A DNA stretch of 64,000 nt, from NCBI GenBank assembly GCA_030431515.1, contig JAUIIX010000001.1, positions 133,366 through 197,365 of the forward strand, written 5' to 3'. Origin of the DNA: a bacterium (GTDB taxonomy: Bacteria > Bacteroidota > Ignavibacteria > Kapaibacteriales > UBA2268). Made by a program: the position numbers and the translations under genes. This document shows, piece by piece, positions 3,105 through 36,903 of this stretch (position 1 is its first letter; each line of letters opens with the position of its first letter). The notes below the pieces were generated by a model. It saw only the letters and a program-made list of their open reading frames with translations. It was not told where the DNA came from and searched no databases.

Positions 3105-4184
3105 ATGAACTTATTAGTAAAACATATCAATTTACATGATTTTAAAATAAATAAAGTTATTTTAACCTTAATTATTTTTGTTTTTGTTTCTTGTTCAACC
3201 ATAAAACAACAAGAAATTGTTCAATTAGACAACCCGATTTATAACAAAGCATTTCAGAAACTTGTTGCAATGAATAGGGATGAAATACCATTTAATTTTA
3301 AAGATGCAGTATTTTCTATTGAAAAGGCATTTCATGACGATACCTTAAATTTGAATTACTATAATAATAAACTTGATTCTATAGTAGATATTATGAATAA
3401 GTTTATTAAAATCAATGGTTATGATACTCTTAAAACTGGTGCAAACTTTGCAGCATACCATTGGATGACTCAAAAATCCCCTATGAACAAGAATACAGTA
3501 TGCTCTTATGATTTTGAAGACTTTTTTGGGGATTCATCTTATTCAAGTATGTTCGTTTCAAAACTCTTAGACACTAAAACTGGAAATTGTGTTTCACTAC
3601 CTTATTTATATAAAATTATAACAGAAGAACTTGGTGGCGAAGCTTTTATTGCTCGTGCACCTCAGCATGTTTATATCAAACATAAAACTGAAGATGGAAG
3701 TTGGACTAATGTTGAACTTACAAATGGTGGTGATTTTCCAAGAGATGTTTGGATTAGAGCAAATACTCCAATAACAGATTTATCAATTGAAAAAGGGTTA
3801 TATATGAAACCTTTAAATGATAAGGAATCTCTTGCTCAAATTATTGCTAGTCTTGGTAATTCTTACAGTAGAAAGTATGGAAAGAATTTAGATGTTTTAA
3901 AAATTGTTAATTATGCATTAAATATTGATTCTCTTTGTATTACTGCATTACTTTTAAAAATGAATTATTATAATGATCAATGTATAGAGCTAGAAAAAAC
4001 TATGTATATAAAGCCAAATAATAATGAAATATTGGATTCAATAAATAAGATTTGGTTAAGTCTTGATACTACTCTTTCAGATTATGGTTATATTAAAACT
4101 GATGATAGTTATTATAGAGATTTTATTGAAAAGAATCACCCAGAAGCTAAAAAAAAATTAAGAGAGATTAAATATGTTGAATAA
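3105..4184 (+). CDS. Transglutaminase-like (SirB1/YchA-like cysteine protease fold) lipoprotein
   Basis: N-terminal anchor with VFVSCST lipobox-like site. TGNCVSLPYLYKIITEELGGEAFIARAPQHVYIKHKTEDGSWTNVELTNG matches the G-x-C...P-x-H...polar residue arrangement of transglutaminase-like superfamily proteins. 3-prime end overlaps the next gene by 11 nt. Confidence 0.5.
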   Translation: MNLLVKHINLHDFKINKVILTLIIFVFVSCSTIKQQEIVQLDNPIYNKAFQKLVAMNRDEIPFNFKDAVFSIEKAFHDDTLNLNYYNNKLDSIVDIMNKFIKINGYDTLKTGANFAAYHWMTQKSPMNKNTVCSYDFEDFFGDSSYSSMFVSKLLDTKTGNCVSLPYLYKIITEELGGEAFIARAPQHVYIKHKTEDGSWTNVELTNGGDFPRDVWIRANTPITDLSIEKGLYMKPLNDKESLAQIIASLGNSYSRKYGKNLDVLKIVNYALNIDSLCITALLLKMNYYNDQCIELEKTMYIKPNNNEILDSINKIWLSLDTTLSDYGYIKTDDSYYRDFIEKNHPEAKKKLREIKYVE

Positions 4185-4577
4185 AATATGTTTTTTATTA
4201 TTCCTAATAGGAAGTTTCGCAAATGCTCAAAATCCTTACGAGCAGTTTGGATTTGATAATACAGAATTAGAAACTGAAATAGAAAAACTGAAAAATAATA
4301 ATTTCATTTTAGTTAATACAGATACAACTTCAAATATATCTGCCTTAAAATTTGATTTTAATGTTGGTAAAGTTATTATTGTTTATAATAATGGAGTTAC
4401 AGAAGAAAAGCTAATTCCAAAAGAGATGGTTCTTAGGTGGCTAAGTGTTGACCCAAAAGCTGACCAGTTTCCACATCAAAGCCCTTATAATTCTATGTCA
4501 AATAATCCTATTAATCGAATTGATCCTGACGGACAAGCTGACTATTATGCAAAAGATGGTAATCATATAGGGAATGA
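4166..4577 (+). repeat. Direct repeat copy A (5-prime module of toxin-like gene 1)
   Basis: Aligns without indels at constant offset 2113 bp to 6279..6690, with scattered substitutions. The match starts 8 nt upstream of both ATGs and ends just after codon 131. Confidence 0.9.
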
Positions 4578-5265
4578 TGGTATAATTGATAACAAAACAA
4601 TGTTAGGAAACCAATCTGATTTTACAGTTCAAGATGGTATGATTACTTCTATGTCAGTGAATGCAAAAATTACTGATTTAAATATAGATCATGATGTTTT
4701 TTTAGGATTAGCAGCAGCTATTAATAAAGAAACTGGAGCTAATAAATCCAAGAATGAAGCAATGGCTATTGGAAATTCTATATTTAATATTGCTAATCAA
4801 GGTGCAGGAAAGTTGAAAACATTGGAAGATTTAGTTATGTTTGATAATACCGTAGTTCAAGGTGCAACTAAATCTAACTATAATGAATTTATAAACTCTA
4901 ATAATAAGACACAGAATTCAAAAAATGCATTAACTTCTGCTGTAAATGCTGTTGGCTTTAATAACGGTTTGTCTGGATTTAAAGATTACTCAAATGGAGC
5001 AGATGGTTGGGATGGGAAAGATTTAATTTTATTAAAACATACAAATAATCATCGCTCATATATATGGACAGAAGATTCAAAAAGTTTAATTGAAAATTAT
5101 ACTAAAATGTATAAAGGTGATGTCCCAATCAGCACATATACCTTCAAAAATAAAGGTGCTCAAATTGAAGCCACTAAAATAATTGGTGAAACTTTATTTC
5201 AAAATATTTTAACACCTTTAGGCGGCGATTTTGACAGAAAAAATAAATTAAGATTTGTTCCATGA
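4174..5265 (+). CDS. Secreted polymorphic-toxin-like protein 1 (signal peptide + RHS-core-tip motif + variable C-terminal domain)
   Basis: Signal peptide MLNKICFLLFLIGSFANA/QNP. RWLSVDPKADQFPHQSPYNSMSNNPINRIDPDGQ resembles the terminal segment of the RHS repeat-associated core. The C-terminal ~230 aa is unrelated in detail to its paralog. Confidence 0.6.
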   Translation: MLNKICFLLFLIGSFANAQNPYEQFGFDNTELETEIEKLKNNNFILVNTDTTSNISALKFDFNVGKVIIVYNNGVTEEKLIPKEMVLRWLSVDPKADQFPHQSPYNSMSNNPINRIDPDGQADYYAKDGNHIGNDGIIDNKTMLGNQSDFTVQDGMITSMSVNAKITDLNIDHDVFLGLAAAINKETGANKSKNEAMAIGNSIFNIANQGAGKLKTLEDLVMFDNTVVQGATKSNYNEFINSNNKTQNSKNALTSAVNAVGFNNGLSGFKDYSNGADGWDGKDLILLKHTNNHRSYIWTEDSKSLIENYTKMYKGDVPISTYTFKNKGAQIEATKIIGETLFQNILTPLGGDFDRKNKLRFVP

Positions 5266-5870
5266 TAAAGTTAATAATACTAATAAATTTATTTGTTGCT
5301 TATCTCAATTCACAAGAACATGAAGAAGAAGAGTTACTGAGATTTAAGGAATCAGTATTTACTATATGGAGAAATGATACATTAAACAGTTTAAATAGTT
5401 ATTTTAATGATTCTTTGAAATTTCAAATGAAATCATATACTTTTTATCCTTCTGATAGTTTAAAGAAAATAGATTCAAATTATATTTTTGAATTTGAAAA
5501 AGCTGAGATTACTTATAGTGTTTATGATAATACATTTCTAGATTTAAGATATTACTATACTAAACAAATAGATAAAGATAGTATAGAAAATGAAAAAGGC
5601 AAAATAGGAGTTGTATTGTCAATGATACAAGAAGTTGATGTTTTACCTAATAATTTCATAATTTCATTTTCTGAATATGTCTTGTATTACCCATCTCCAA
5701 CAATAAATCTTAAATATGATTTTGTTACTGAATACAAAGACATAAAAATATCTTCATACTCAAAAGTAAATGAATATATTGAATATGGGTATATTAGAGG
5801 AAGAATAGATAGCAAAAAGATATTTAAATCTGTAAATGCACCATTAAGAATTGAATTAAAAGATGATTAA
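5262..5870 (+). CDS. Hypothetical exported protein; candidate immunity protein for toxin 1
   Basis: ATGA start/stop overlap with the toxin gene. N-terminal signal-like segment MIKLIILINLFVAYLNSQ. Very AT-rich. No recognisable domain. Confidence 0.45.
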   Translation: MIKLIILINLFVAYLNSQEHEEEELLRFKESVFTIWRNDTLNSLNSYFNDSLKFQMKSYTFYPSDSLKKIDSNYIFEFEKAEITYSVYDNTFLDLRYYYTKQIDKDSIENEKGKIGVVLSMIQEVDVLPNNFIISFSEYVLYYPSPTINLKYDFVTEYKDIKISSYSKVNEYIEYGYIRGRIDSKKIFKSVNAPLRIELKDD

Positions 5871-6262
5871 TGAAAAAGAAAATCATATACATATTCTTAA
5901 TATTTCTACTAATTATTACAATTCTTTATCAATTTGATAATATTATAGAATCCTTCAAACCCAATAGAGTATTATCTGCATATAATAACGAAGGTTTAGG
6001 TGGTATAAGAATTGTACTTAGAGAGGATAAATCATTTGAATATATATTAATATCATTTTTAGGAACTGAAGAAATTATTAAAGGACAATTTATAATCTAT
6101 GATAGCACTTTAATATTAAATACGAATATTGATATTCTATCAAATACTTATTCAATAAATAAAAACGAAATAAAATTTTTAGATAAGTATAATCATATTA
6201 ATTCATTTAAAGTTTATGAATTGAATGAAAGCTATTTTAATGATATATTATTCGATGAATAA
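5870..6262 (+). CDS. Hypothetical membrane-anchored small protein; second candidate immunity/accessory ORF
   Basis: TAATG overlap with the upstream ORF. N-terminal TM/signal anchor KKIIYIFLIFLLIITILY. No recognisable domain. Confidence 0.4.
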   Translation: MKKKIIYIFLIFLLIITILYQFDNIIESFKPNRVLSAYNNEGLGGIRIVLREDKSFEYILISFLGTEEIIKGQFIIYDSTLILNTNIDILSNTYSINKNEIKFLDKYNHINSFKVYELNESYFNDILFDE

Positions 6263-6278
6263 AAAAAAAATAAATAGG

Positions 6279-6690
6279 GATTAAATATGTTGAATAAAAT
6301 ATTGATTTTATTATTCCTTATAGGAAGTATCGCAAATGCACAAAATCCTTACGAACAGTTTGGATTTGATAATACAGAGTTAGAAACAGAAATGGAAAAA
6401 CTGAAAAGTAATAATTTCATTTTAGTAAATACTGATACAACTTCAAATATTTCTGCTTTAAAATTTGATTTTAATGTTGGTAAAGTTATCATAGTTTATA
6501 ATAATGGATTTGCAGAAGAAAAGCTAATTCCAAAAGAGATGGTTCTTAGGTGGCTAAGTGTTGACCCTAAAGCTGACCAGTTTCCACATCAAAGTCCTTA
6601 TAATTCTATGTCAAATAATCCTATTAATCGAATTGATCCTGACGGGCAAGCTGATTATTATGCAAAAGATGGTAATCATTTGGGTAATGA
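6279..6690 (+). repeat. Direct repeat copy B (5-prime module of toxin-like gene 2)
   Basis: See copy A: same length, constant 2113-bp offset, divergence begins abruptly after ...DPDGQADYYAKDGNH. Confidence 0.9.
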
Positions 6691-7396
6691 CAACGTTGAT
6701 GACAATAGAACCATGTTATCTACAGGAATAAAAAAAGATAAAGATGGGAATATTACTTTTGAGAATCCTATGGATTTGAAAATTAAGCATAATGAATTTG
6801 CAACAATTTCTAATATTATTAAACATGAAGGTGATTCTGAAGACCCAAATGAATATTTATTTTTCTCACATGCTACGAACAATGAAGTAGGAGGTAAATC
6901 ATCAAAAATGTATGATAAACTTATGTCAGGGTTTAGTTCTGTACCTAAAAGTAAAAAAGTACCAATATCAACTTCAAATAATTATAAAAACAATATGGCA
7001 AGATCTGGAGTGATTGATGTTATAAATGGTGGTATAGATCCAACTAATGGAGCAAGAAGATGGGATGGTACAGATTTTTTAGCTTGGGGGTTAAACGCTC
7101 CTAATGGTAAACCACATAATAAATTTAGTGAATACGGTTCAATATTAATTCACGGAGATCATTTCTCAAATTATTATATTGGAAATGTTGCTAAATGGGG
7201 AAACACAGTCAATTATGGATCTAATAAATATCAAATTCCTGCTGATGTATTTATAAATAATATGCAAATTTTAGTTAATGATGTTAATGGTGTAACTGAG
7301 TGTACAATTAAAATAAATAATAATAACAATATAAAAAACAAACTAGAATCTTCAGCGGCTGCTGGTAATACAATATTTTGGAAAGTGGTTAAATGA
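6287..7396 (+). CDS. Secreted polymorphic-toxin-like protein 2 (same N-terminal module, different C-terminal domain)
   Basis: The first 131 aa differ from toxin 1 at about 7 positions (manual alignment). Same RWLSVDP...NNPINRIDPDGQ motif. Distinct C-terminus containing DPTNGARRWDGTDFLAWG. Confidence 0.6.
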   Translation: MLNKILILLFLIGSIANAQNPYEQFGFDNTELETEMEKLKSNNFILVNTDTTSNISALKFDFNVGKVIIVYNNGFAEEKLIPKEMVLRWLSVDPKADQFPHQSPYNSMSNNPINRIDPDGQADYYAKDGNHLGNDNVDDNRTMLSTGIKKDKDGNITFENPMDLKIKHNEFATISNIIKHEGDSEDPNEYLFFSHATNNEVGGKSSKMYDKLMSGFSSVPKSKKVPISTSNNYKNNMARSGVIDVINGGIDPTNGARRWDGTDFLAWGLNAPNGKPHNKFSEYGSILIHGDHFSNYYIGNVAKWGNTVNYGSNKYQIPADVFINNMQILVNDVNGVTECTIKINNNNNIKNKLESSAAAGNTIFWKVVK

Positions 7397-7896
7397 TACT
7401 TTATATAATTATATTTTTAATAATAAACATATCTTATGTACTTACTAATAGTAAGGAAAATATAATTAATGAATTATCTTTTGATATAAATAGAGATTAT
7501 ATAATAGATAAGATTAGTATATTGGAAAATGTTAATAGTAGAGACAGAATATTATTGTTAAGTTTAAGTAATAAGAATTTAAAAGCAGTTAATATTAGAA
7601 ATAAAAAAGCTATTCCAAACTATCAAGAAACATACTTGTCTTGTAACGAATTGTTTATAGATTCCTTAGGTTTTTATTTTACTATTGAATCAGGAAATGG
7701 AAATAATTATATTTCAAGAAAATTCTTTTTTAAATATTACGAAAATGATATTGTTTTATATAAAATTAAAGAGTTTATTATTTACGAGCATCATTTCATT
7801 AATGAAGAAAATACAATCTATTTCCAATTTGAAAATGTTAATGAATACGATTCTAAGTATAGTATTTATAATTTTGATTATAAGAATTTTTGGTAA
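7393..7896 (+). CDS. Hypothetical membrane-anchored protein; candidate immunity protein for toxin 2
   Basis: ATGA overlap with toxin 2. N-terminal hydrophobic anchor MILYIIIFLIINISYVL. Extremely AT-rich. No recognisable domain. Confidence 0.45.
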   Translation: MILYIIIFLIINISYVLTNSKENIINELSFDINRDYIIDKISILENVNSRDRILLLSLSNKNLKAVNIRNKKAIPNYQETYLSCNELFIDSLGFYFTIESGNGNNYISRKFFFKYYENDIVLYKIKEFIIYEHHFINEENTIYFQFENVNEYDSKYSIYNFDYKNFW

Positions 7897-8726: not shown

Positions 8727-9440
8727 TTAATCTTTTTTAGCTTCTTCTGAATCTGTAGTATCTTCAGATTTAACATCTTCATTTGTTTCTTCTGATACTT
8801 CCTCAGATGTAGCTTCTTCTACTACTTCTTCAACTGTATCAACAACTGCTTCAGTAGTTTCAACAGCTGCCTCAGCAACTACTTCAACTGTTTCTTCTAC
8901 AGTGTCAACTACTGTTTCAGTAACTTCTTCAACAACTTCCGCTATTGGTTCAACTACTTCAGCAACAGGAGCAGAAACATTTTTAGCTGGTTTTGCTTTT
9001 TTCTTAGCTTTTTTAGGAGCATTACCAACTATCTCTCTATTATAATCAACTAATTCTATTAATGCTGCACGCCCAGAATCACCTCTTCTAATACCAGTTT
9101 TTACAATACGAGTGTAACCACCTGGTCTATCGCCGATTTCAGGACAGATTTCATCAAAAAGAGCTTCAATAACTTCTTTTTTTCTAATATCTCTACCTAA
9201 TAATCTACGAGTATGAACATCATATTTTTGTCCATCATCTAATAAACCTTGTTGCTCTCTTTGATATGCAAGTCTAGCTTTAGTAATCATTTTCTCAGCA
9301 TAAGGGCGAAGTTCTTTAGCTTTAGCTTCAGTAGTATGAATACGTTTGTATTCAAGCAATTGAGTAAGTAAAGTTCTCATTAACGCTCTTCTATGACTTG
9401 AAGTACGATTTAGTTTTCTACCTTTTACGTTGTGTCTCAT
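8727..9440 (-). CDS. rplQ: 50S ribosomal protein L17 with ~115-aa basic-then-acidic C-terminal extension
   Basis: MRHNVKGRKLNRTSSHRRALMRTLLTQLLEYKRIHTTEAKAKELRPYAEKMIT is canonical L17, and it follows rpoA. The tail is KKAKKKAKPAKN followed by V/E/T-rich low complexity. Confidence 0.95.
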   Translation of the reverse strand: MRHNVKGRKLNRTSSHRRALMRTLLTQLLEYKRIHTTEAKAKELRPYAEKMITKARLAYQREQQGLLDDGQKYDVHTRRLLGRDIRKKEVIEALFDEICPEIGDRPGGYTRIVKTGIRRGDSGRAALIELVDYNREIVGNAPKKAKKKAKPAKNVSAPVAEVVEPIAEVVEEVTETVVDTVEETVEVVAEAAVETTEAVVDTVEEVVEEATSEEVSEETNEDVKSEDTTDSEEAKKD

Positions 9441-26716: not shown

Positions 26717-29700
26717 TTATTTCGAATATAAAACTTTCAAATTCTTACTTCTACCATTCAATTTTAATTGAATATTATACATAGAATTTGAAGTAATATT
26801 CTCATTTTTCCAAGGATTCCATTCAAAATAGTATTTTCCAGCACTATAAATTTGATTTTCAATTGTTTCAACTTCTCTACCAAACAAATCATAAACTATT
26901 ATTTCTAATTCTCCACTTTCAGGTAAGGTCGCAGAAAAAGTAACAAAATCATCAAATGGATTTGTAGAAGTCAATTCAACTACAAATTCAATATTACTCT
27001 CATTTATTAAAGTCACAATTCCAGAGGAAGTATTATCTATAGTCCCATCGATATCTTCTTGATGTAACCGATAATTATATTTTACATTAGCAAGAATGTT
27101 CTCATCAGTATATTCATATCTCTTCCCTACTGTATGATTACCTGCTCCTTGTCCATTAATCCAAGTTAATCTTTCCCAACTGTCTTCCCTTTGACTATCG
27201 AGTTTCCTCTCAAGATAAAATCCCTTATTATCAATTTCACTTTCTGTTTCCCAATATAATTCAGCTTTATTATTTCTAATGATACCATCAAATTCTGCTA
27301 ACTCAACAGGCCAATCTTCGTTTGGCAACAATCCTACTAACTTATAGCCTAATACAAGTCGAATCATAGGAATCCATATTCCTCTTGATAAGGTAAAAGT
27401 CTGTTTATCAACAGGAGATAGACCTACGAAATTATTATGTGGGAAAGCAGGATTTCCAACGTTAGGTAAAAATTGAATCCATTCATTTGAACCAGTCCTA
27501 TTTTCCATAGCAAAATGATTATCATTTAATTTTTGAGTACCTAATGTATTTAACCTTTTAAATCCATCAAACAAAGATAATTGAATATTACCTAATCCAT
27601 GAGGTTCATTTTCCTTGTCATAAACATTAGTAATTCTTGTTCCTCCTCTAAATTTACTTGCCCCAAGATTTAAAGGTGTTTGCCCTAACTGTGTTACAAC
27701 AACCCAAAATTTTCTATTGTAGAAATCAAATATATATTCTTTGTCTAATTTATATTCAACATAATCATCAAATATAATTAAAGGATTTTCATTATCATCA
27801 AACAAAACATCAGATACGCCTTTTTTTCTGTAAAAACGTGTATCTCTAATCTCTCTTCCAGGTATTCCATTTGCATCATCGTATAAGGCAATGGAAATAT
27901 CATCAGTGCTATTTCCAATTGATGGGAAATAACATCTTACACCTTTTATAGTATCATTATTTTGCAATTCAAAACGAACTGCTATTTGACCCGAACCAGA
28001 ACCACCTATGTCTCCTGTTTCTTCTTCTTGCATATTCCACAAGAAATAATCTTGATTTTGTGAACCATTGTTTTTACCCTTCAGTTTTAACCCACTCGAA
28101 AAACCATCACTTTTTATTATTTTTGGTATATCGTTATTTTGTGGATAGCTATCATAAGCCATTTCGTCATTCACGTTAAACATACCAAAACTAGACTCTC
28201 CATCACCAACTACTATATTCTTTACAAAAACATCATTATCTGGGAACCTATCAGAGTCACCAGGAAAGATGATTTTTGAACGTATTTCAAATTCACCTGT
28301 TCCAAAATGTCTAAAATTTATTGTTTGGAGATTCTTAACATAATATGACATTCCATAATGAACAGGAACGACATCAAATCTATTATAACTTGCAAAATTA
28401 TAACCTTTCTTAGTTATTCTTGTATTAATATAATATGATGGAGCCCCTCCAATCGTATTATTACTTAATGTTATACTCATTGGAATTCTTACAATTTGCG
28501 AAGGTGGTGATGAAGTATTTATTACTTGAATATTTATATCATTAATCCCAATATCTGTTGCCTCTAAATCTGAATCTCTCAGTTCAATATTATCAACAAA
28601 GAAATTATCATCATCATCAGGAATAGTATTTTTAATTCCATGTTTTGCTAATAGAGCATCATCATTAGCAAGCACTCTTACTCTAAATCTAAAATTCTCA
28701 GACATATTAAAAGGCATATTTTTAAATGTATCTGGAATTGCTATCCAATATCTTTTATAAGTTCTATCTATTCCTTCATCAAATACATTAGCTCTTAATG
28801 AATTTACATTAGGTGATTCTGGATTAGATAAAGCAGAATCAGGGTCCTCTTCCAAAAATCCTCTTCTATATCCACCAGCACCAAATACTTCTAAAGCAGC
28901 TACTTCTGTCTCAGTTTCTGCTCCGCCCCTTCTGAAGTGCATACGCCATCTCGATTCATCTGGGTTTGTAATATGAACACTCTTATCTTTTTCATCTTTA
29001 ACATAAGGATTTAGAAACTCAACCACTATTTTATCAGGGAATTGTGAACTTGCATTAGTATGGTCGAAAGTTGTAAAGATATTATTATTAAATAATACCC
29101 TTGGTTCAGGTCCAACTAATACATCATCACACCAACCAAGATCCCAATTATTTCTTTTCTCTGTTCTTTGTATAGATATTTGTATTCTCGGATTGGATGA
29201 TATTTTATTCATTCCGTCTTTTGATAATTTCTTAATATTAATAGGAAAAGAAGTTATAACATCTCCCCCTGGATTAGTTCCTGGTTCTAAACCATCTAAT
29301 GTTTTTCTATTCATTTTAATAGTTGGTGAGTGAAGTCTATAATTTTTAGCTGCGGCTATTTTTTCAGGTATCCAAGCATTTATTGAATCTTTGTTGTTAT
29401 CTATATATGATGCAAAATAAATTCCGTGTGGAGGTAAAGGGTTATCAGAAACAACATTACCATCAACAACTTCAGCACCTTTGTTTACCCATTTCATTAC
29501 AGATGGCACGGCTCTATTGTCAATAAGATGGTATTCCGTTGTATTATCATATAGTTCATCTAATCTTCTAATTACATATAAGTTTCTTGATAAAGTATCA
29601 TCATAAGTCCAGTCTTGTTCAATTATCTCGCCATTTGAACTTTCAGGAATAATAAATGCTTTAACCTCTAAATTCCCAATATGATTTATATCATCTTTAG

Positions 29701-31585
29701 AAGCAGTCCATTCTGGAAAAGTAACTTCAACAAAACTGTAAGGTGGCATTCCGGCATAAGCTTTGCCATAAGGAGAATCTTTTCCATCACTTGGGAAAAA
29801 TAAATTGTTATTAGGAAATTCCTCAGGATTTTGATACCTACTTACTTCATAATTGTTATTTAATTTCGATAAATTAACTAATCTAATATAAGCTCCATCT
29901 TCTCCAGTACAATTTGATGATAACTTACTAGCCAAACAGGTCGAGTCAATCTTAATTGTTTTATTATAAATTATTCTACCAGATGCTTTATTAATTATTT
30001 GAAATGCAGTTTTAAAATCAACAAATTGTTTTTGATAATTAATTCCATCTGATCCTTGAATATCATTAGACAAATTTTGAATAATAGCAACAGGTTGAAT
30101 TGTATTTAATCTTTCGTCATTTGCAAATAATTCATAATTATCAACTTTTGTAGTCTTCACTCTATTTTTTAATTCTAAATCATCGCCAGATTCATCACGT
30201 ATATTGTATTGAATATCAACAACTCTAAATACATTCTTCCATTGTTTGAATTTAATTAAATGTGGAAGAGTATTTTTGTACTTAGTATTATTTATTTCAT
30301 TTAAAGAATAGTGAGTAAATTGTTCATATTCATATCCATCTCCATCTTCGTAAGTCTCAAACTCTTCCTTTAAATTATATAATTCTCTCTTTTTACGAAT
30401 ATTATTATTATGCCGAGCAAATCCCCTTACCCCAATTGTAGTGTTTAATCTAAATAATTCATTAGCATCTACTCTACATTGTCCATATAAAAACCCATTA
30501 AAAGATCTATAATAAATAGTAATATCATTATTTTTATTATCTATAATAACTTGTACATTACATGAAATATAATTATCATCCCCTGGACGTAAATCTTTTT
30601 CTACATTGACATCATTACAAGTTATACTTTCTACTCTCCCTTTAAGTTGAGCATTAACAATATAGATATGTAACTTAGTATTCGAATCAGATCTTGCATA
30701 ATATACTTTTCCATGGTCATCTTTTTTATTAGATGATATTGAAAATTGAGATAAATGTAAATCACCCCAAATAGGAGCAATAACAGCTGTCCTCATTGTA
30801 TTTTTCCAACCAATTTCGCTACCATTTAGCGATTTATTTCCTCTTGCTCTAATTCCAGCATATTTATTATATGGGTCTTTAGCTAAGGCACTATGAAAAT
30901 AACCATAATCGTCTTTAGTATTATCTACATTACCTCTTGGTACACTATCTCTTACGAAATAGTCTTGCGATTCTTTATTATAAATTGAGCCATTAATAGT
31001 TGTTCTATTTCCGAAACTATCATAGTTATATCTTCTATTAGAAAATGAAATTAAACCATTAGTAGAAACATAAAAACTATCATACTTTATTCCATTGAAC
31101 CTAAAGCCGCCATCTAATCCTAATGGAATAGGACCTGCAAACGCTTCATCTGTTGAATCAATTTCACCTTTATAACTATGATTATAAAAATCTATTTCAG
31201 ATGTACTTTTTAAATCATCAGCAGGATTACGAAAATACCTATGACCTTCTTTATTGGATGAAGACGACCAATATGATTGATTAAATTGTCTTGGTCCAGA
31301 TATAATTCTAAGCCAAGTTAACTCTGAGTCAGTAGTATCTTTAAAAATATTTTCATTTAAAAATATATTAGAGTTGGAATTAACAAAATAATATCCAGTC
31401 GATATTGCTGGTTGACTATCTTCCCACCAATAATCATTAATAATATCTAAGAAGGGAGAAGGAATAGTATTATACTTCTCATTATAATTAGAAATATTTC
31501 TTTGTTTTATATCATTTTTCAAACTAAGCGATTGTGATTTAGCTAAACAAGCAAAAAGCACAAATATCATTATTATTCTAAACAT
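26717..31585 (-). CDS. Very large secreted protein (1622 aa), unknown function, T9SS-type C-terminal sorting domain; paralog of 32056..36903
   Basis: N-terminal signal peptide MFRIIMIFVLFACLAKSQ. C-terminus LTSTNPFDDFVTFSATLPESGELEIIVYDLFGREV...SMYNIQLKLNGRSKNLKVLYSK fits the T9SS CTD pattern. Collinear conserved blocks with the upstream paralog. Confidence 0.75.
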   Translation of the reverse strand: MFRIIMIFVLFACLAKSQSLSLKNDIKQRNISNYNEKYNTIPSPFLDIINDYWWEDSQPAISTGYYFVNSNSNIFLNENIFKDTTDSELTWLRIISGPRQFNQSYWSSSSNKEGHRYFRNPADDLKSTSEIDFYNHSYKGEIDSTDEAFAGPIPLGLDGGFRFNGIKYDSFYVSTNGLISFSNRRYNYDSFGNRTTINGSIYNKESQDYFVRDSVPRGNVDNTKDDYGYFHSALAKDPYNKYAGIRARGNKSLNGSEIGWKNTMRTAVIAPIWGDLHLSQFSISSNKKDDHGKVYYARSDSNTKLHIYIVNAQLKGRVESITCNDVNVEKDLRPGDDNYISCNVQVIIDNKNNDITIYYRSFNGFLYGQCRVDANELFRLNTTIGVRGFARHNNNIRKKRELYNLKEEFETYEDGDGYEYEQFTHYSLNEINNTKYKNTLPHLIKFKQWKNVFRVVDIQYNIRDESGDDLELKNRVKTTKVDNYELFANDERLNTIQPVAIIQNLSNDIQGSDGINYQKQFVDFKTAFQIINKASGRIIYNKTIKIDSTCLASKLSSNCTGEDGAYIRLVNLSKLNNNYEVSRYQNPEEFPNNNLFFPSDGKDSPYGKAYAGMPPYSFVEVTFPEWTASKDDINHIGNLEVKAFIIPESSNGEIIEQDWTYDDTLSRNLYVIRRLDELYDNTTEYHLIDNRAVPSVMKWVNKGAEVVDGNVVSDNPLPPHGIYFASYIDNNKDSINAWIPEKIAAAKNYRLHSPTIKMNRKTLDGLEPGTNPGGDVITSFPINIKKLSKDGMNKISSNPRIQISIQRTEKRNNWDLGWCDDVLVGPEPRVLFNNNIFTTFDHTNASSQFPDKIVVEFLNPYVKDEKDKSVHITNPDESRWRMHFRRGGAETETEVAALEVFGAGGYRRGFLEEDPDSALSNPESPNVNSLRANVFDEGIDRTYKRYWIAIPDTFKNMPFNMSENFRFRVRVLANDDALLAKHGIKNTIPDDDDNFFVDNIELRDSDLEATDIGINDINIQVINTSSPPSQIVRIPMSITLSNNTIGGAPSYYINTRITKKGYNFASYNRFDVVPVHYGMSYYVKNLQTINFRHFGTGEFEIRSKIIFPGDSDRFPDNDVFVKNIVVGDGESSFGMFNVNDEMAYDSYPQNNDIPKIIKSDGFSSGLKLKGKNNGSQNQDYFLWNMQEEETGDIGGSGSGQIAVRFELQNNDTIKGVRCYFPSIGNSTDDISIALYDDANGIPGREIRDTRFYRKKGVSDVLFDDNENPLIIFDDYVEYKLDKEYIFDFYNRKFWVVVTQLGQTPLNLGASKFRGGTRITNVYDKENEPHGLGNIQLSLFDGFKRLNTLGTQKLNDNHFAMENRTGSNEWIQFLPNVGNPAFPHNNFVGLSPVDKQTFTLSRGIWIPMIRLVLGYKLVGLLPNEDWPVELAEFDGIIRNNKAELYWETESEIDNKGFYLERKLDSQREDSWERLTWINGQGAGNHTVGKRYEYTDENILANVKYNYRLHQEDIDGTIDNTSSGIVTLINESNIEFVVELTSTNPFDDFVTFSATLPESGELEIIVYDLFGREVETIENQIYSAGKYYFEWNPWKNENITSNSMYNIQLKLNGRSKNLKVLYSK

Positions 31586-32055: not shown

Positions 32056-35000
32056 TTATCTTACAACAGATACTTTCTCAGAAACAGATTGACCGTTTAG
32101 AGAAGCTCTAAGGATGTATGCACCATTAGCAACTTTAGCACCTGTTTGAGTTTCAGCATTCCAAGTGAAACTCATTAAACCACCATTAACTGATTGGTTT
32201 AAGAATTGGTGAACTACATTACCAAACATATCAACAACTTCAACAACCATTTCACCTGATTTAGGAGCAGTTACATTGAAAGTTACATCATTGTCAAATG
32301 GATTTGTAGAAGTCAATTCTAAAGATAAAGGAATGTTGTTAATAAGAGTCTTAGTAACAATTCCAGAAGCTTCACAATTGAACGCACCATCGATATCTAC
32401 TTGTCTTAGTCTATAATTGTAAGTTACATTAGATTTAACTTTGTCATCAACGAATGTGTATTTAGTTTCAGCAGTAAAGTTACCTTTACCTCTACCATTA
32501 ACCCATCCTAATTGAGACCAGTATTCTTCAGTTTCAGAATCTAATTTTCTTTCAACGTAGAATCCTTTATTATCTACTTCAGAAGCAGTAACCCAGAATA
32601 ATTCTACTTTATTATTTCTAGCTACACCATCAAACTCAGTAATTTCCACTGGAACATCACATTCTTCATAAAGTGGATTAGTCTCAAATGATTTTTCGCC
32701 TAAAACTGGTCTTAATAACGGAATCCAGAAACCTCTTGAGTTAGTCATAGTCGCACCGTCATTAGGAGAGAATCCCATGTGGTGTAAGTGAGAGTAACCA
32801 GGATTACCAACATTTGGCATTGATTGTACCCATTCGTTAGAACCTTTAGAGTTTTCGTAAGCAAATCTATTATCGTTTAAAAGTTGCGAACCTAATGTAT
32901 TAGGTCTTCTGAATTCTTTATTAAGAGCTAAGTGAATACCACCTAAACCAAGAGGTTCACCAGGCATATCATAAATATTCATTGTTCTCATACCACCTCT
33001 TGCAGAAGAAGCTCCCAATTGAAGTGGATCTTGACCTAATTGAGCAATAACTACCCAATAATTACCAGGTTGTAATACTAATTCATTGTCAACTTTATAT
33101 TCAACGTACTCACCAAATTTTCTTAAAGGTCTTCCTTGTTGATCAAATTCAACATCAGATACACCTCTTTTTCTATCAATTCTTGAGTTTGGTACTTCTC
33201 TACCAGGGATACCATTTGCATCATCATAAATTGAAATTGCAATATCATCTGGTGACTGATTTAACGTTCCAAAGAAAGCTTTGAAACCTTTAATAGTATC
33301 AGCATTTTGTAAATCGAATCTAGTTGCAATTTGTCCTGAACCAGAACCAATTAGTGCACCAGCTTGGAAGTTCTCAAAATCCCAACCCCATTTAGTTCCA
33401 CCTTGGTTATACCCAAATAAAGTTAAACCTCTACCAGGGATACCATTTGTTAATTCAGGAACATTATTTGTTACGTTTTGAATTGGATCTAATGCAAAAT
33501 CATCACCAAATTCAACTTTAAAGTTAGTATAAGTTGTATCATTTCTAGGATCCTTATCAGAATCACTAGGTAAAATAATTACTGCTTGTATTTTATAATC
33601 ACCAGGTCCAGCTTTTCTCGCATCAAATGAAGGCATATTTTTGCTTAATTGCTCACTACCTCTATGAACTGGAATAGGTTCATATTTACAATATATAGGT
33701 CTATCATCACCATTTTTGAATATTTCAACTTTAACATAGTAAGTTGGAGCTCCAACAGACGTATTATTAGTCAAAGTAACAGAAATTGGTATTCTTGTTG
33801 CCTGAGAAGCAGGAGTTCTATAATAAGGCCATCTTGTCTTAACTGCTGAAACTTCTATATCAGTTGCTTCTAAATCTTGGAATAAGATTTGAACATTATC
33901 AACAAAGAAATCATCATCATCATCAGGAATAGCAGGATTTCTACCCATTTTAGCTAATAGTCCATCATTCCCAGACATTACTTTAATTCTAAATCTAAAG
34001 TTTTCAGAAGTATTAAACGGCATACTGATAAATGTATCAGGAATTGCTAAGAAGAATTTTCTATATTCAAAGTCAATACCGTCATCAAATACATTAGCTC
34101 TTAATGAGTTTATGTTAGGATTAGCAGGATTTGCTAAAGCTGAATCTGGGTCTTCCTCTAAGAATCCAACTTGATACCCACCACCACCAAATAATTTAAG
34201 TACTGGTACATCTTTTTCAGTTGGAGCTCCTTCTCTTCTAAAGTGTTTCTTCCACTGATCATCTTTAATATTAACCACATGATGAAGTCTATTTACCTGA
34301 ACAGGAACCCATGAGTTTGCATACTCAACAGTAATTTCATCTGGTTTCTCAGATACAGATTGTCTATGATTATAGTTATTAAAGATATTGTTATTTAGTA
34401 TTGATCTTGGTTCTGGACCAACTAATCTTGCATCAGCCCATCCTCTTTGCCAGTTTTCATTATGTTGTGCTCTTTGAATAGATAATGATAATACTGATTT
34501 CTTTCTATTAATCATATTAATAGGGAAAGATGAAATTATATCACCACCTGGGTTTGTTGCTGGTTCTTGACCACCAAGTGTTACCCTATTCATTTTAATC
34601 GTAGGTGAATTTAAAGTAAATGCTTTTGCAGCATTAATTTTTGCTTGTAACCATCTTTTTTCTGGAGGAGCTTCAACAAATTGAGCTTGGTATCTACCTC
34701 TAGGAGGTAATGGGTGCTTAGAAACTTCTTCACCAGAAACCATTTCAGCATCAATATTTACCCACTTCCAAACTGAAGGCATAGGAACACCATCAATTAG
34801 ATGGAACTCATTACCATCATCATAAAATGTTTCTAATCTTCTTAAAACGAATAGATTTACAGATGTAGTATCATCAAATGGCCATTCATCTTTAATTTCA
34901 GTTAAATTAGGTCTTCTTGGTATAGAAATGATGTATGCTTCCAATCTACCAATGTGATCATCAATAAACTCTGATGGTGACCATGGAGGGAAGAATAATT

Positions 35001-36903
35001 CAACAAATCCATAAGGAGGAACTCCACCATAAGGTTTTCCAGATTCTGAATCTGAACCATCTCCTGGGAATAAGTAAGGAGCATTTGGATTCTGAGAATT
35101 TGGAATATGATTAGTTACATCAAAATTTCTTCCATTTACAGTAACTTTAGATAATCTAATTCTAACATCTCTATCACCTGAACAATCTATAGCTTTAGCT
35201 TCTGGAAGTGCCATACAAGTTGAATCAATAACTGTTTCTTTTTGATAGATTACTCTACCAGAAGCTTTATTTACGATTCTAAACATTGCTCTAAACTCTA
35301 AATCTTGTGTTACATAGTTTGTTCCATTTTGACCAGTAACATCATTAGTTAAATTTTGGATTAAAGCAACTGGTTGTAAAGCTCCAATTCTTGCTTCACC
35401 AGCTAATAATTCATAATTATTAACTTCTTCCGTTTTTACTCTTACTTTAAATGATAAATCATCAAATAATGGATCTAATGTTTTATCTCTAACTCTATAC
35501 TGAATATCAACTACTCTTAATGCATTTGTCCATTGCTTGTATCTTACTAAATATTGTGAAGTAGGGTACGGTGCATTTGGATTTGCTTCTGATACCCAGT
35601 GATGAGTATATTGTTCATATTCAGTTAATACACCTGTGTTTGTTTTTCTATTGAAGTTAATATGACGAGCAAAACCTCTTACACCAGATGTAGTATTTCT
35701 TAAAAATATTTTATTTGCAGGTTCTTTACAGTTTGGATTTGGTCCAGCCGAACCTGAAAAAGTTCTATATATAATTAAGATATCATTTTCTTTATTGTCT
35801 AATATTACTTGAGCTGAAGATGAAATATAATTTTCTTCACCTGGTCTTAATCCCATTGGTTGATTACCAATTGTTCCACATCTTTGCGTTGCAACTGTTC
35901 TAATTGGTTGAGCATTAATAAAATATATAAATAATTTATCATTTTCTAATGTTCTGTAATACATTACTTTTCCATGAGGATCAACGCTTTCATTGTTTGA
36001 TGAATATTGAGATAACTCTAAATCACCAAAGAATGGAGAAATAACAGCAGTTTTTGTACCACCAAATGCAGAGTTTAACCCCATTCCACCACGTCTTCTA
36101 ATTCCGCCTTGTGCATTCCCTGGATTATTTCCTAATGCAACATATCTCCAACCGTAGTCATCAACAGTGTTATCTTCACTTTCCGTACCATTTCCAGTTC
36201 TACCTCTTACGAACCAATCCATAGACATAGGATCGTGAGCTGTTTCACTTTCTACTCTTCTATTACCGTCCGCATCATAGAAGTATCTTCTGTTAGTTAA
36301 AGCAACTAAACCATTTGTTGTTACATAGAAACTATCATATCTAATACTATTAAACTTGAATCCACCAGACAAACCAATTTTGATTGGTCCTGCAATAGCA
36401 TCATCAGTAGAATCGATAACCCAAGTTTTATCTAAGCCCTCAGATTCATGAATAAAGTATTCTACTTCAGGTGTTCCTGCATTATCATTTGCAGGGTTTC
36501 TAAAGTATGTATACCCTTCAGTATTTTCCGGGGAATCCCAATAAGTAGATACTACTTGTCTTGGACCAGATGTTATTTCAACCCATCTTGATTCATCAAC
36601 ACTTATATCTAAAAATTCTGATGCTTTGGGTCTCCAATTATCATCAGCATTAGATTGGTTAGTTACAAAATAGTAACCAGTTGAAACTGCCGGCTGTGTA
36701 CCAGACCACCAATTTGCAACTTCATTAACAACATTACCCGTCTGTTCAAACGGTTCAGGTTGTGTCTGAATATTTCCTTGCGGATAGTAGCATGATTTTG
36801 CTTTGATCAAACACTCTTGCAACTGTCTTCCAGACTGTGCAGAAGCATCATACATCAATAGCATAAACGCTAAAGCCGAAGTTAGTAAAATAAACCTTTT
36901 CAT
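32056..36903 (-). CDS. Very large secreted protein (1615 aa), unknown function, T9SS-type C-terminal sorting domain; paralog of 26717..31585
   Basis: Signal peptide MKRFILLTSALAFMLLMYDASAQ. C-terminus LTSTNPFDNDVTFNVTAPKSGEMVVEVVDMFGNVV...NGAYILRASLNGQSVSEKVSVVR. AAGGAG lies ~8 nt upstream of the ATG. Confidence 0.75.
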   Translation of the reverse strand: MKRFILLTSALAFMLLMYDASAQSGRQLQECLIKAKSCYYPQGNIQTQPEPFEQTGNVVNEVANWWSGTQPAVSTGYYFVTNQSNADDNWRPKASEFLDISVDESRWVEITSGPRQVVSTYWDSPENTEGYTYFRNPANDNAGTPEVEYFIHESEGLDKTWVIDSTDDAIAGPIKIGLSGGFKFNSIRYDSFYVTTNGLVALTNRRYFYDADGNRRVESETAHDPMSMDWFVRGRTGNGTESEDNTVDDYGWRYVALGNNPGNAQGGIRRRGGMGLNSAFGGTKTAVISPFFGDLELSQYSSNNESVDPHGKVMYYRTLENDKLFIYFINAQPIRTVATQRCGTIGNQPMGLRPGEENYISSSAQVILDNKENDILIIYRTFSGSAGPNPNCKEPANKIFLRNTTSGVRGFARHINFNRKTNTGVLTEYEQYTHHWVSEANPNAPYPTSQYLVRYKQWTNALRVVDIQYRVRDKTLDPLFDDLSFKVRVKTEEVNNYELLAGEARIGALQPVALIQNLTNDVTGQNGTNYVTQDLEFRAMFRIVNKASGRVIYQKETVIDSTCMALPEAKAIDCSGDRDVRIRLSKVTVNGRNFDVTNHIPNSQNPNAPYLFPGDGSDSESGKPYGGVPPYGFVELFFPPWSPSEFIDDHIGRLEAYIISIPRRPNLTEIKDEWPFDDTTSVNLFVLRRLETFYDDGNEFHLIDGVPMPSVWKWVNIDAEMVSGEEVSKHPLPPRGRYQAQFVEAPPEKRWLQAKINAAKAFTLNSPTIKMNRVTLGGQEPATNPGGDIISSFPINMINRKKSVLSLSIQRAQHNENWQRGWADARLVGPEPRSILNNNIFNNYNHRQSVSEKPDEITVEYANSWVPVQVNRLHHVVNIKDDQWKKHFRREGAPTEKDVPVLKLFGGGGYQVGFLEEDPDSALANPANPNINSLRANVFDDGIDFEYRKFFLAIPDTFISMPFNTSENFRFRIKVMSGNDGLLAKMGRNPAIPDDDDDFFVDNVQILFQDLEATDIEVSAVKTRWPYYRTPASQATRIPISVTLTNNTSVGAPTYYVKVEIFKNGDDRPIYCKYEPIPVHRGSEQLSKNMPSFDARKAGPGDYKIQAVIILPSDSDKDPRNDTTYTNFKVEFGDDFALDPIQNVTNNVPELTNGIPGRGLTLFGYNQGGTKWGWDFENFQAGALIGSGSGQIATRFDLQNADTIKGFKAFFGTLNQSPDDIAISIYDDANGIPGREVPNSRIDRKRGVSDVEFDQQGRPLRKFGEYVEYKVDNELVLQPGNYWVVIAQLGQDPLQLGASSARGGMRTMNIYDMPGEPLGLGGIHLALNKEFRRPNTLGSQLLNDNRFAYENSKGSNEWVQSMPNVGNPGYSHLHHMGFSPNDGATMTNSRGFWIPLLRPVLGEKSFETNPLYEECDVPVEITEFDGVARNNKVELFWVTASEVDNKGFYVERKLDSETEEYWSQLGWVNGRGKGNFTAETKYTFVDDKVKSNVTYNYRLRQVDIDGAFNCEASGIVTKTLINNIPLSLELTSTNPFDNDVTFNVTAPKSGEMVVEVVDMFGNVVHQFLNQSVNGGLMSFTWNAETQTGAKVANGAYILRASLNGQSVSEKVSVVR

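Follow-up and report, generated by a model that had tools for sequence, protein, structure and literature searches.

What kind of system is encoded by genes whose products carry the very end of an RHS core but none of the shell that normally precedes it? The question is raised by two tandem genes in a 64,000-nucleotide (nt) stretch of a Kapaibacteriales genome (GCA_030431515.1, contig JAUIIX010000001.1, positions 133,366 to 197,365), which we refer to as the window. Working from the letters alone, the original prediction had described these genes as polymorphic toxin cassettes on a minimal carrier, followed by exported immunity candidates. We analyzed the operon that contains them (3105-7896) together with its relatives in other genomes. 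The operon probably encodes a Sec-dependent polymorphic toxin system built on a constant module of two parts, an exported partner protein and a leader with an RHS tail that is common to both toxins, with SleB-like cargo. The evidence that supports this reading directly is the gene architecture, the conservation and linkage of partner and leader, the polymorphism of the toxin tips, the position of the junction at which the tips are exchanged, the pairing of tips with immunity genes, and fold similarity.

Architecture of the operon

The operon lies on the plus strand and is composed of six open reading frames (ORFs), all with ATG starts and separated by overlaps or tiny gaps. Lengths are given in amino acids (aa).

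3105-4184 (+): partner, 359 aa
4174-5265 (+): toxin T1, 363 aa (signal peptide 1-18, leader 19-86, RHS tail 87-120, linker 121-145, tip 146-363)
5262-5870 (+): I1a, 202 aa, exported cognate immunity candidate for T1
5870-6262 (+): I1b, 130 aa, small and anchored in the membrane by its N-terminus
6287-7396 (+): toxin T2, 369 aa, with signal peptide, leader and tail as in T1
7393-7896 (+): I2, 167 aa, exported cognate immunity candidate for T2

In order, the junctions are an 11-nt overlap (partner/T1), ATGA (T1/I1a), TAATG (I1a/I1b), a 24-nt spacer (I1b/T2), and ATGA (T2/I2). Each of the encoded proteins has one hydrophobic segment, at its N-terminus, and no transmembrane segment beyond it. Two parts of the original prediction were borne out at this level: the two toxin genes with Sec signal peptides are ORFs with ATG starts and N-terminal hydrophobic segments, and the downstream ORFs are coupled through ATGA or TAATG and have N-terminal signal or anchor segments. 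Its statement that the window holds no obvious delivery machinery needs amending, since it overlooked the conserved gene at the head of the operon; the partner gene (3105-4184) lies inside the coordinates that had been assigned to the cassettes but was absent from the account of them.

A constant leader ending in an RHS tail

T1 and T2 differ at exactly seven positions over residues 1-131, the number previously estimated by manual alignment. Their first 393 nt contain 23 differences (15 synonymous and 7 nonsynonymous codons). The similarity forms a duplicated block that begins upstream of the start codon and contains the motifs by which the module is recognized.

4149-4608 (+): duplicated leader block, copy 1 (25 nt 5' of the ATG plus codons 1 to ~145)
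6262-6721 (+): duplicated leader block, copy 2 (same extent as copy 1)
4231-4254 (+): T1 NPYEQFGF motif, directly after the predicted signal-peptide cleavage between ANA and Q
4432-4533 (+): T1 RHS C-terminal tail LRWLSVDPKADQFPHQSPYNSMSNNPINRIDPDG, 34 aa, with D93 (4450-4452), D117 (4522-4524), and PxxxxDPxG
6545-6646 (+): T2 RHS tail, as in T1

The two copies of the block are 93% identical across a 300-nt core. Identity fades in the DNA alignment past about codon 135-145, and protein similarity runs on through the common linker to about residue 145. The leader is modeled as an NPYxxFGY motif, one helix, and a four-strand beta-meander. P21 is invariant in the leader family and Q19 and F25 are nearly so, and a long-leader class from Chryseobacterium has the version NPFxxxGY.

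The RHS-like motif noticed in the original prediction corresponds to the C-terminal part of TIGR03696 (Rhs_assc_core). Residues 86-121 match positions 42-76 of this 76-position model (E ~2e-4) with scores of 21.8 and 22.1 bits, below the 32.5-bit cutoff, and the first half of the core is absent. The junction motif is present as P112-INRI-D117-P-D-G120 plus D93, and these positions correspond to a known protease: RhsA has the PxxxxDPxG motif and two catalytic aspartates, D1324 and D1346 (PMC8765631), to which D93 and D117 correspond. In every leader sequence inspected D93 and G120 are unchanged and position 117 holds Asp or Glu, and the tail is degenerate in some relatives (IDIDG, VDANG, IEFEG). 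The absence of a shell also held up, as no YD/RHS repeats were found in T1 or T2 (no Pfam match at E<=1) or elsewhere in the window. T1 and T2 therefore fall outside the Rhs family by their lack of repeats and by the core-domain threshold alike.

Three candidates for a hidden RHS core, a known leader domain, or a nearby shell were rejected. Reading the leader as a degenerate full RHS core (YYPFG...DPxG) gave a profile-profile E of ~0.1 once the tail was removed, with unstable alignments and reversed controls at 0.5-0.6. Microscilla-N sits upstream of the signal peptide and is confined to one species. Two giant ORFs in the window (26717-31585 and 32056-36903) each have a YD-like motif, but they have no RHS Pfam match and belong to a different protein family. 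These giant ORFs, both on the minus strand, are paralogs of 1621 and 1614 aa that are 47% identical and have signal peptides; the sole Pfam domain is a C-terminal FlgD-Ig-like domain on one of them.

Tips are exchanged at the RHS tail

When T1 was searched against a database, two kinds of short protein (~230-600 aa) were retrieved. The first kind has the signal peptide, leader, and tail of T1 with other C-termini, and the second comprises pieces of true RHS proteins with YD repeats that have a T1-like tip at their end. The leader module is not tied to a single C-terminus; such a tie would have told against polymorphism. The leader-protein set consisted of 46 proteins from reference genomes plus metagenomic ones. 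Eight Pfam tip families were recognized, namely Toxin-JAB1 (12 proteins), Tox-REase-7, AHH, Tox-URI2, Tox-MPTase2, Hydrolase_2, Ntox44, and CHAP, and the tips of the 46 proteins fall into 28 unrelated clusters. For 140 pairs the leader and the partner were both >65% identical while the tips were <25% identical. Together with the conserved pairing of tips and immunity genes described below, these families and clusters uphold the earlier reading of the locus as polymorphic toxin/immunity grammar on a minimal carrier.

The position of exchange was evaluated in pairs whose leaders are at least 70% identical and whose tips are unrelated. Similarity stops between -12 and +7 residues from the Gly of DPxG in 120 of the 131 scorable pairs (mode +4). 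This clustering at DPxG indicates that the RHS tail is the swap junction, as it is at canonical RHS loci. Tandem toxins with near-identical leaders occur in the window and at two other loci (L001 and L083). A single partner gene stands ahead of the tandem toxins in the window and in L001; L083 begins at a contig end, which hides the position of its partner.

We also observed an orphan RHS C-terminal cassette array beside a phage-type integrase in Flavihumibacter profundi (L084, 3334-9705). The orphans of this array begin inside the YYPFG core and have no signal peptide. One of them has a tip of the T1/T2 family and is followed by an exported, non-homologous immunity candidate.

The leader is linked to the partner gene

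Relatives of the partner numbered 473 among species-representative genomes. We sampled 80 of these loci, 76 of which had room downstream. A leader-tail ORF with a signal peptide followed the partner at 35 of the 76 by regular expression and at about 11 more by eye. The start of this ORF lay -46 to +82 nt from the partner stop, in most cases within 10 nt. The partner homologs of L001 and L002 are immediately upstream of the toxins, as in the window. Approached from the leader, a degenerate DNA pattern for AQ[DN]NPYxxFG[YH] had nine sites in a 596-Gb genome collection, and all nine were beside a partner gene; a single-sequence leader query of genome contigs gave no match. Partner and leader were the only gene families conserved across the 46 loci, with an integrase (8 of 46) being the next most frequent. 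The pair is widespread in Bacteroidota.

The two constant parts also vary together. Partner distances track leader distances (Spearman r 0.77-0.80) and do not follow tip distances (r 0.22). The correlation between partner and leader is equally strong when the tail is left out (r 0.80), which points to the non-tail part of the leader as the recognized part.

Two observations on the distribution of these genes are added here. In five Chryseobacterium loci (L029, L030, L034, L036, and L041) the partner gene is followed, ~140 nt on, by a conserved cytoplasmic protein of 211-217 aa instead of a leader toxin, so the partner family may have a second, toxin-independent context. Seven loci (L012, L027, L067, L085, L089, L097, and L104) consist of Bacteroidota/Kapaibacteria-type genes on contigs of metagenome-assembled genomes (MAGs) labeled Glaciecola, Hyphomicrobiales, Clostridia, or Synechococcus, and these labels are probably the result of mis-binning or mislabeling.

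The partner is probably an exported enzyme

The partner begins with a hydrophobic segment and a lipobox-like 'FVSC' site. Its family includes at least 317 proteins, some of which are named SirB1-N or transglutaminase-like, and the closest homologs in reference genomes are from Ignavibacteriae/Kapaibacterium MAGs. All members have N-terminal signal peptides, of the lipoprotein type in the Kapaibacteria branch and of the ordinary type in many lineages. The Pfam Transglut_core2 model matches the partner at E 0.004 and 17.2 bits, below the 23.5-bit cutoff, and several homologs carry a precomputed PF13369 match. No partner-like domain fused to a toxin was found among 281 collected toxin proteins.

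3588-3716 (+): partner putative catalytic core, with Cys162 (3588-3590), His188 (3666-3668), Asn202, and Glu204 (3714-3716)

Across 83 partner sequences (30-70% identical) the invariant residues are G160-N161-C162, S164, P166, P186, H188, N202, and E204. In the AlphaFold2 model (predicted local distance difference test [pLDDT] 88.8, predicted TM-score [pTM] 0.85) the Cys is at the N-terminus of a helix, the His and Glu are on successive strands, and helical repeats resembling tetratricopeptide repeats follow. The best Foldseek matches are menin and PNGase, two proteins with a transglutaminase fold; these matches are weak (TM-score 0.2-0.4, E 0.06 and above), and the partner profile gave nothing significant against the PDB. 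In menin, a transglutaminase fold and helical repeats form a peptide-binding cavity, and the spacings of the catalytic residues presumably resemble the triad positions of PNGase. The partner is an exported protein that, according to the model, has a transglutaminase fold, helical repeats, and a putative Cys-His-acid triad on the expected framework. The invariance of Cys, His, and Glu/Asn suggests that the partner is probably an enzyme and not a mere scaffold.

The T1 and T2 tips have a predicted peptidoglycan-lytic fold

4609-5262 (+): T1 tip, SleB-like predicted fold; candidate catalytic Glu186 (4729-4731), 'NGADGWDG' motif (4996-5016)
6722-7393 (+): T2 tip, distant paralog of the T1 tip; candidate catalytic Glu181 (6827-6829)

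The tips were originally described as diverging directly after the tail. The sequences do diverge, but only after about residue 145, and the tips retain distant homology: a hidden Markov model from which T2 was left out gives the T2 tip 50 bits (E 1.5e-17), against a shuffled maximum of 6.4 bits, and BLASTP of the tips only gives 28% identity (E 3e-4). Both belong, as distant homologs, to a single large toxin family that has no name. When 16 tips are aligned, eight positions are invariant (E66, E75, N85, D151, G155, W159, G161, and G218, counted from after DPDG). At 90% identity the family forms 153 clusters, and at 50% identity it has 915 representatives. The domain is C-terminal in every case, and the longest of the proteins has 1,327 aa.

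The 16 tips had no Pfam match, Hydrolase_2 included, and the tip profile found nothing significant by sequence in the PDB. A SleB/CwlJ-type hydrolase was predicted from the motif 'AxAIxxE(S/T)G ... N' before the structural work. The T1 tip was modeled by AlphaFold2 at pLDDT 85-97, and in the Foldseek comparison that the original prediction had proposed as a check, the only coherent PDB matches were the SleB catalytic domains 4FET and 4F55 (target-normalized TM-score 0.64-0.69, probability 0.80-0.91). About 18 of the 27 top matches in the BFVD viral library were phage SleB cell-wall hydrolases, with probabilities up to 1.0. Alignment by hhalign to tips that bear Hydrolase_2 gave E 0.08, or 0.013 with a deeper profile (reversed control 0.51), and placed three motifs in order, the catalytic-Glu motif among them. 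E186 of T1 and E181 of T2 are invariant in the tip family and, by sequence alignment, pair with the Glu of 'YAEARG' in the Hydrolase_2 tips. A SleB-like type VI secretion system (T6SS) effector with an essential Glu, and an immunity protein with a periplasmic signal, have been validated experimentally (PMC11148199). We consider SleB-like peptidoglycan lysis by the T1/T2 family to be quite likely, and go no further than that because the E-values are modest. Such a fold would explain why the immunity proteins are exported.

A separate observation concerns the linker. A 'DYYxxDGxHxGNDGxDDN' module (4537-4605 and 6650-6718), modeled as three beta-strands, follows DPxG in several tips that are otherwise different. 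It is also present in P0019, P0022, P0023, and P0024, with Hydrolase_2 and DUF5675 tips included, and could be a small adaptor subdomain confined to cargo that acts on the envelope.

Immunity genes follow the tips

The exported immunity candidates of the original prediction fared unequally. I1a and I2 are conserved together with their own tip types. Homologs of I1a (34-44% identity) are directly after T1-type tips in L001 and L002, and in L083 an I2 homolog of full length (45% identity, E 7e-42) has an overlap with the end of P0008, a toxin whose tip is of the T2 type. I1b, which has the strongest N-terminal hydrophobic segment of the six operon proteins, lacks such a counterpart: no homolog was found at the equivalent place in L002 or L083, and it had no family match. 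An immunity role for I1b is left unsupported because of this, and we treat it as a candidate second or orphan immunity protein, or as unrelated. The I1b ORF has a G+C content of 19.6% and is wedged between I1a and T2, and it could be an orphan immunity gene left from a lost cassette. At L001, an exported leucine-rich repeat protein occupies the immunity position after the first toxin.

The localization of immunity proteins tracks the tip type, even for tips on RHS-type orphans. The ORFs that come after AHH, REase-7, and URI2 tips lack a hydrophobic N-terminus, and those after JAB1, lipase-like, Hydrolase_2, and T1/T2-type tips encode lipoproteins or bear a signal peptide or an anchor. For T1 and T2 this pattern supports a target in the envelope and would explain the export of their immunity proteins.

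Proposed mechanism

In the mechanism that we propose, partner, toxins, and immunity proteins would all be exported by Sec into the periplasm, where I1a would neutralize T1 and I2 would neutralize T2. The partner would recognize the constant leader and either process it or aid its passage to the surface or medium, in analogy to MafA for MafB in Neisseria. The tail would provide a cleavage point that frees the tip, and the tip would degrade the peptidoglycan of neighbors that do not have the matching immunity protein. Tips and immunity genes are exchanged by recombination at DPxG. Of these steps, we infer partner catalysis and its substrate, cleavage of the shell-less tail, outer-membrane passage, target entry, and toxicity. 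The invariant catalytic set favors an enzymatic role for the partner (processing or covalent handling) that would lead to surface display or release.

A bolder form of this proposal, which we put forward tentatively and consider rather doubtful, is that the partner and the NPYxxFGY leader make up an unrecognized, self-contained Bacteroidota/Kapaibacteria route that moves Sec-exported toxins from the periplasm onto or off the surface. The transglutaminase-fold enzyme would handle the cargo by proteolysis or covalent transfer, the bare RHS tail would cleave itself, and, in a Maf-like manner, even nucleases would be delivered into the target cytoplasm.

Several points weigh against the reading of the operon as a two-part Sec-dependent toxin system with SleB-like cargo. 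The predicted partner is soluble and alpha-helical and so could not itself form an outer-membrane channel. The canonical Rhs aspartyl protease sits in a plug built from about 14 repeats (PMC8765631); this plug is absent here, which makes self-cleavage by a bare 34-residue tail uncertain, and the tail has low confidence in the AlphaFold2 model of T1. The correlation between partner and leader could come from co-inheritance alone. About 40% of the sampled partner homologs are without a downstream leader toxin, so the family may have another or broader function. The SleB assignment comes from fold similarity, for which the Foldseek E-values are weak (0.006 to 0.4), and from the marginal profile match at E 0.013, with no Pfam or PDB match by sequence. 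Finally, this reading does not account for I1b.

Alternative explanations

The alternative that survives best reassigns the roles of partner and tail. The partner would be a releasing peptidase, or a transglutaminase that anchors the toxin covalently, and the tail would be a recognition site and recombination junction that does not cleave itself. We regard this as possible, though on the unlikely side. Its first half is consistent with the invariant Cys-His-Glu/Asn set, which suggests catalysis, and with the low-scoring menin match, which suggests the arrangement of transglutaminase fold plus helical repeats; releasing peptidases, papain-like ones included, are a recognized element of polymorphic toxin systems (PMC3482391). 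Its second half would account for the missing repeat-built plug of the autoprotease and for the tails that are degenerate. Both aspartate positions are nevertheless kept, which is unexpected for a mere recognition site, and the covariation with the partner loses nothing when the tail is removed.

A second alternative makes the toxins cargo of a type IX secretion system (T9SS) or a T6SS encoded elsewhere in the genome. A gene for a PorZ-like beta-propeller protein, a T9SS component, is found at 45138-47414 on the minus strand, and from it we conclude that the organism has a T9SS. Most host lineages of the leader-toxin family presumably have a T9SS as well, and some a T6SS-iii. However, no T9SS C-terminal sorting domain (Por_Secre_tail or type B C-terminal domain) was found in T1, T2, or 58 family members, and their C-terminal residues belong to the toxin fold, in common with RHS-borne tips. 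No gene for PAAR, VgrG, Hcp, or an adaptor was linked to the module across the 46 loci, and a cleavable Sec signal peptide is atypical for T6SS effectors. We consider this explanation improbable.

Less probable again is that T1 and T2 are peptidoglycan hydrolases secreted for housekeeping or predation (autolysins), with inhibitors in the periplasm, and not interbacterial toxins. The SleB-like tip fold, the export of every component, and the lack of a delivery machine encoded nearby would all suit autolysins. The same module, however, carries AHH, REase-7, and URI2 nucleases with cytoplasmic immunity proteins, and also JAB, Ntox44, and other toxin domains; its tips are swapped between near-identical modules, and outside the module the T1/T2 tips occur at the ends of RHS toxins.

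The weakest alternative, that T1 and T2 are orphan RHS C-terminal cassettes kept as a silent reservoir until recombined into a full-length rhs gene elsewhere, draws on the retained core-end sequence (as in orphan rhs-CT modules), on the sharing of the tip family with real RHS proteins and with orphan arrays such as that of F. profundi, and on the swap junctions at DPxG, but it is very hard to reconcile with a separate ATG, a signal peptide, and a non-RHS leader that is conserved and spans phyla, with the predominance of synonymous changes in that leader, with the translational coupling of T1 to the conserved partner gene, with the lack of an RHS shell gene in the window, and with true orphans such as P0017, which begin within the YYPFG core and have no signal peptide.

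Relation to known systems

The closest known logic is that of MafA/MafB/MafI in Neisseria. MafA is needed for the passage of MafB through the outer membrane (PMC7738311), and the constant MafB-N domain has been predicted to dock on MafA (Zhang et al., 2012, PMC3482391). The order of genes is alike, with an exported partner, a Sec-signal toxin with a constant N-terminus and a variable C-terminus, an immunity gene, and tandem cassettes after these, and the partner is not polymorphic in either case. No sequence relationship is apparent, however, and T1 and T2 have no Pfam match to DUF1020/MafB-N. The partner differs from MafA in its predicted transglutaminase fold and helical repeats with an intact putative catalytic set, its sole Pfam signal being Transglut_core2, and in the ordinary signal peptide that replaces the lipobox in many lineages. 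The junction here is an RHS tail, and the hosts are Bacteroidota, Ignavibacteria, and Kapaibacteria, whereas Maf has been reported in Proteobacteria.

Canonical Rhs/YD-repeat toxins (Rhs of the T6SS, TcC of Tc toxins, and the Sec-dependent RHS proteins of Bacteroidetes) have in common with T1 and T2 the C-terminal ~35 residues of the core, which include PxxxxDPxG and an aspartate pair separated by about 22-24 residues. In both groups the variable toxin directly follows the motif, tips of the same families are exchanged there, and the cognate immunity gene is downstream. T1 and T2 are unlike them in having no YD repeats, cocoon, or plug, in a carrier of ~100 residues compared to ~1,000, and in a leader that, outside the tail, has no significant similarity to the RHS core. 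Some RHS toxins have an N-terminal inactive transglutaminase domain that was predicted to function in peptide binding and toxin anchoring (PMC3482391), and these likewise tie a transglutaminase-fold module to Sec-dependent polymorphic toxins with an RHS junction. In those toxins the domain is fused, catalytic residues have been lost, and a complete RHS array comes after it; in the operon the module forms a protein of its own with invariant Cys, His, and Glu, and there is no array. More generally, Sec-dependent toxins with lineage-specific constant N-terminal domains are part of the grammar that was set out for polymorphic toxins (Zhang et al., 2012, PMC3482391).

For the cargo, the T1 tip resembles SleB/CwlJ (Pfam Hydrolase_2) and the effector T6EC3 in its predicted fold and, by sequence alignment, in the conserved candidate catalytic Glu of the first-helix motif, and it has an exported immunity candidate in common with T6EC3 (PMC11148199). 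It differs from SleB/CwlJ in having no Hydrolase_2 match and in its larger size (~220 aa), as it contains insertions, a three-strand linker at the N-terminus, and a beta extension at the C-terminus, and from both SleB/CwlJ and T6EC3 in its delivery context. No description of the system of partner and leader was found in the literature outside subscription-only papers.

Genomic setting and other observations

The G+C content of the cassette is 18-29%, compared to ~31% in the adjacent DNA. Scans for sigma-70 promoters and terminators and for the Bacteroidetes -7 motif TAnnTTTG performed no better than shuffles in the AT-rich DNA of the operon. SecY shares 84% identity with that of one uncultured MAG and 71-74% with those of Kapaibacterium, Ignavibacteria, and Chlorobiota MAGs. 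The flanking genes are unrelated to the operon. Downstream is a convergent gene for an ABC ATPase, and the gene upstream, by reading of its sequence, appears to encode a CBS-domain-like membrane protein. Farther along the window, the ribosomal protein L17 encoded at 8727-9440 on the minus strand is unusual in being extended at its C-terminus by ~100 residues, which form an acidic stretch with much Val, Glu, and Thr.

The cassette of L001 (GCA_964464375.1, 1-21095) is beside a 2869-aa polymorphic toxin with PT-HINT and Ntox21, a protein with a T9SS tail, and an island of type I restriction-modification and abortive-infection genes. This neighborhood looks like a hotspot of conflict systems.

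Significance

Polymorphic toxins are a main currency of bacterial competition, and for the large Sec-dependent class the step from the periplasm to the target is largely unknown outside Neisseria Maf. The operon fits the known grammar of polymorphic toxins and differs from the systems described in it by its leader, a separate and apparently active transglutaminase-fold partner, and an RHS junction without a shell. A large toxin domain family that lacks annotation (915 representatives) is defined as well; its fold is predicted to be peptidoglycan-lytic, and two immunity families go with it. The module is compact and widespread, is multi-copy in Chryseobacterium, and carries nucleases, peptidases, lipase-like domains, and cell-wall hydrolases as cargo. 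Because it is present in the genetically tractable Flavobacterium and Chryseobacterium, it offers testable questions: how a 40-kDa toxin with ~100 constant residues leaves a diderm producer and enters its target, whether the RHS aspartyl junction can work without a shell, and what role an exported enzyme with a predicted transglutaminase fold may have in delivery.

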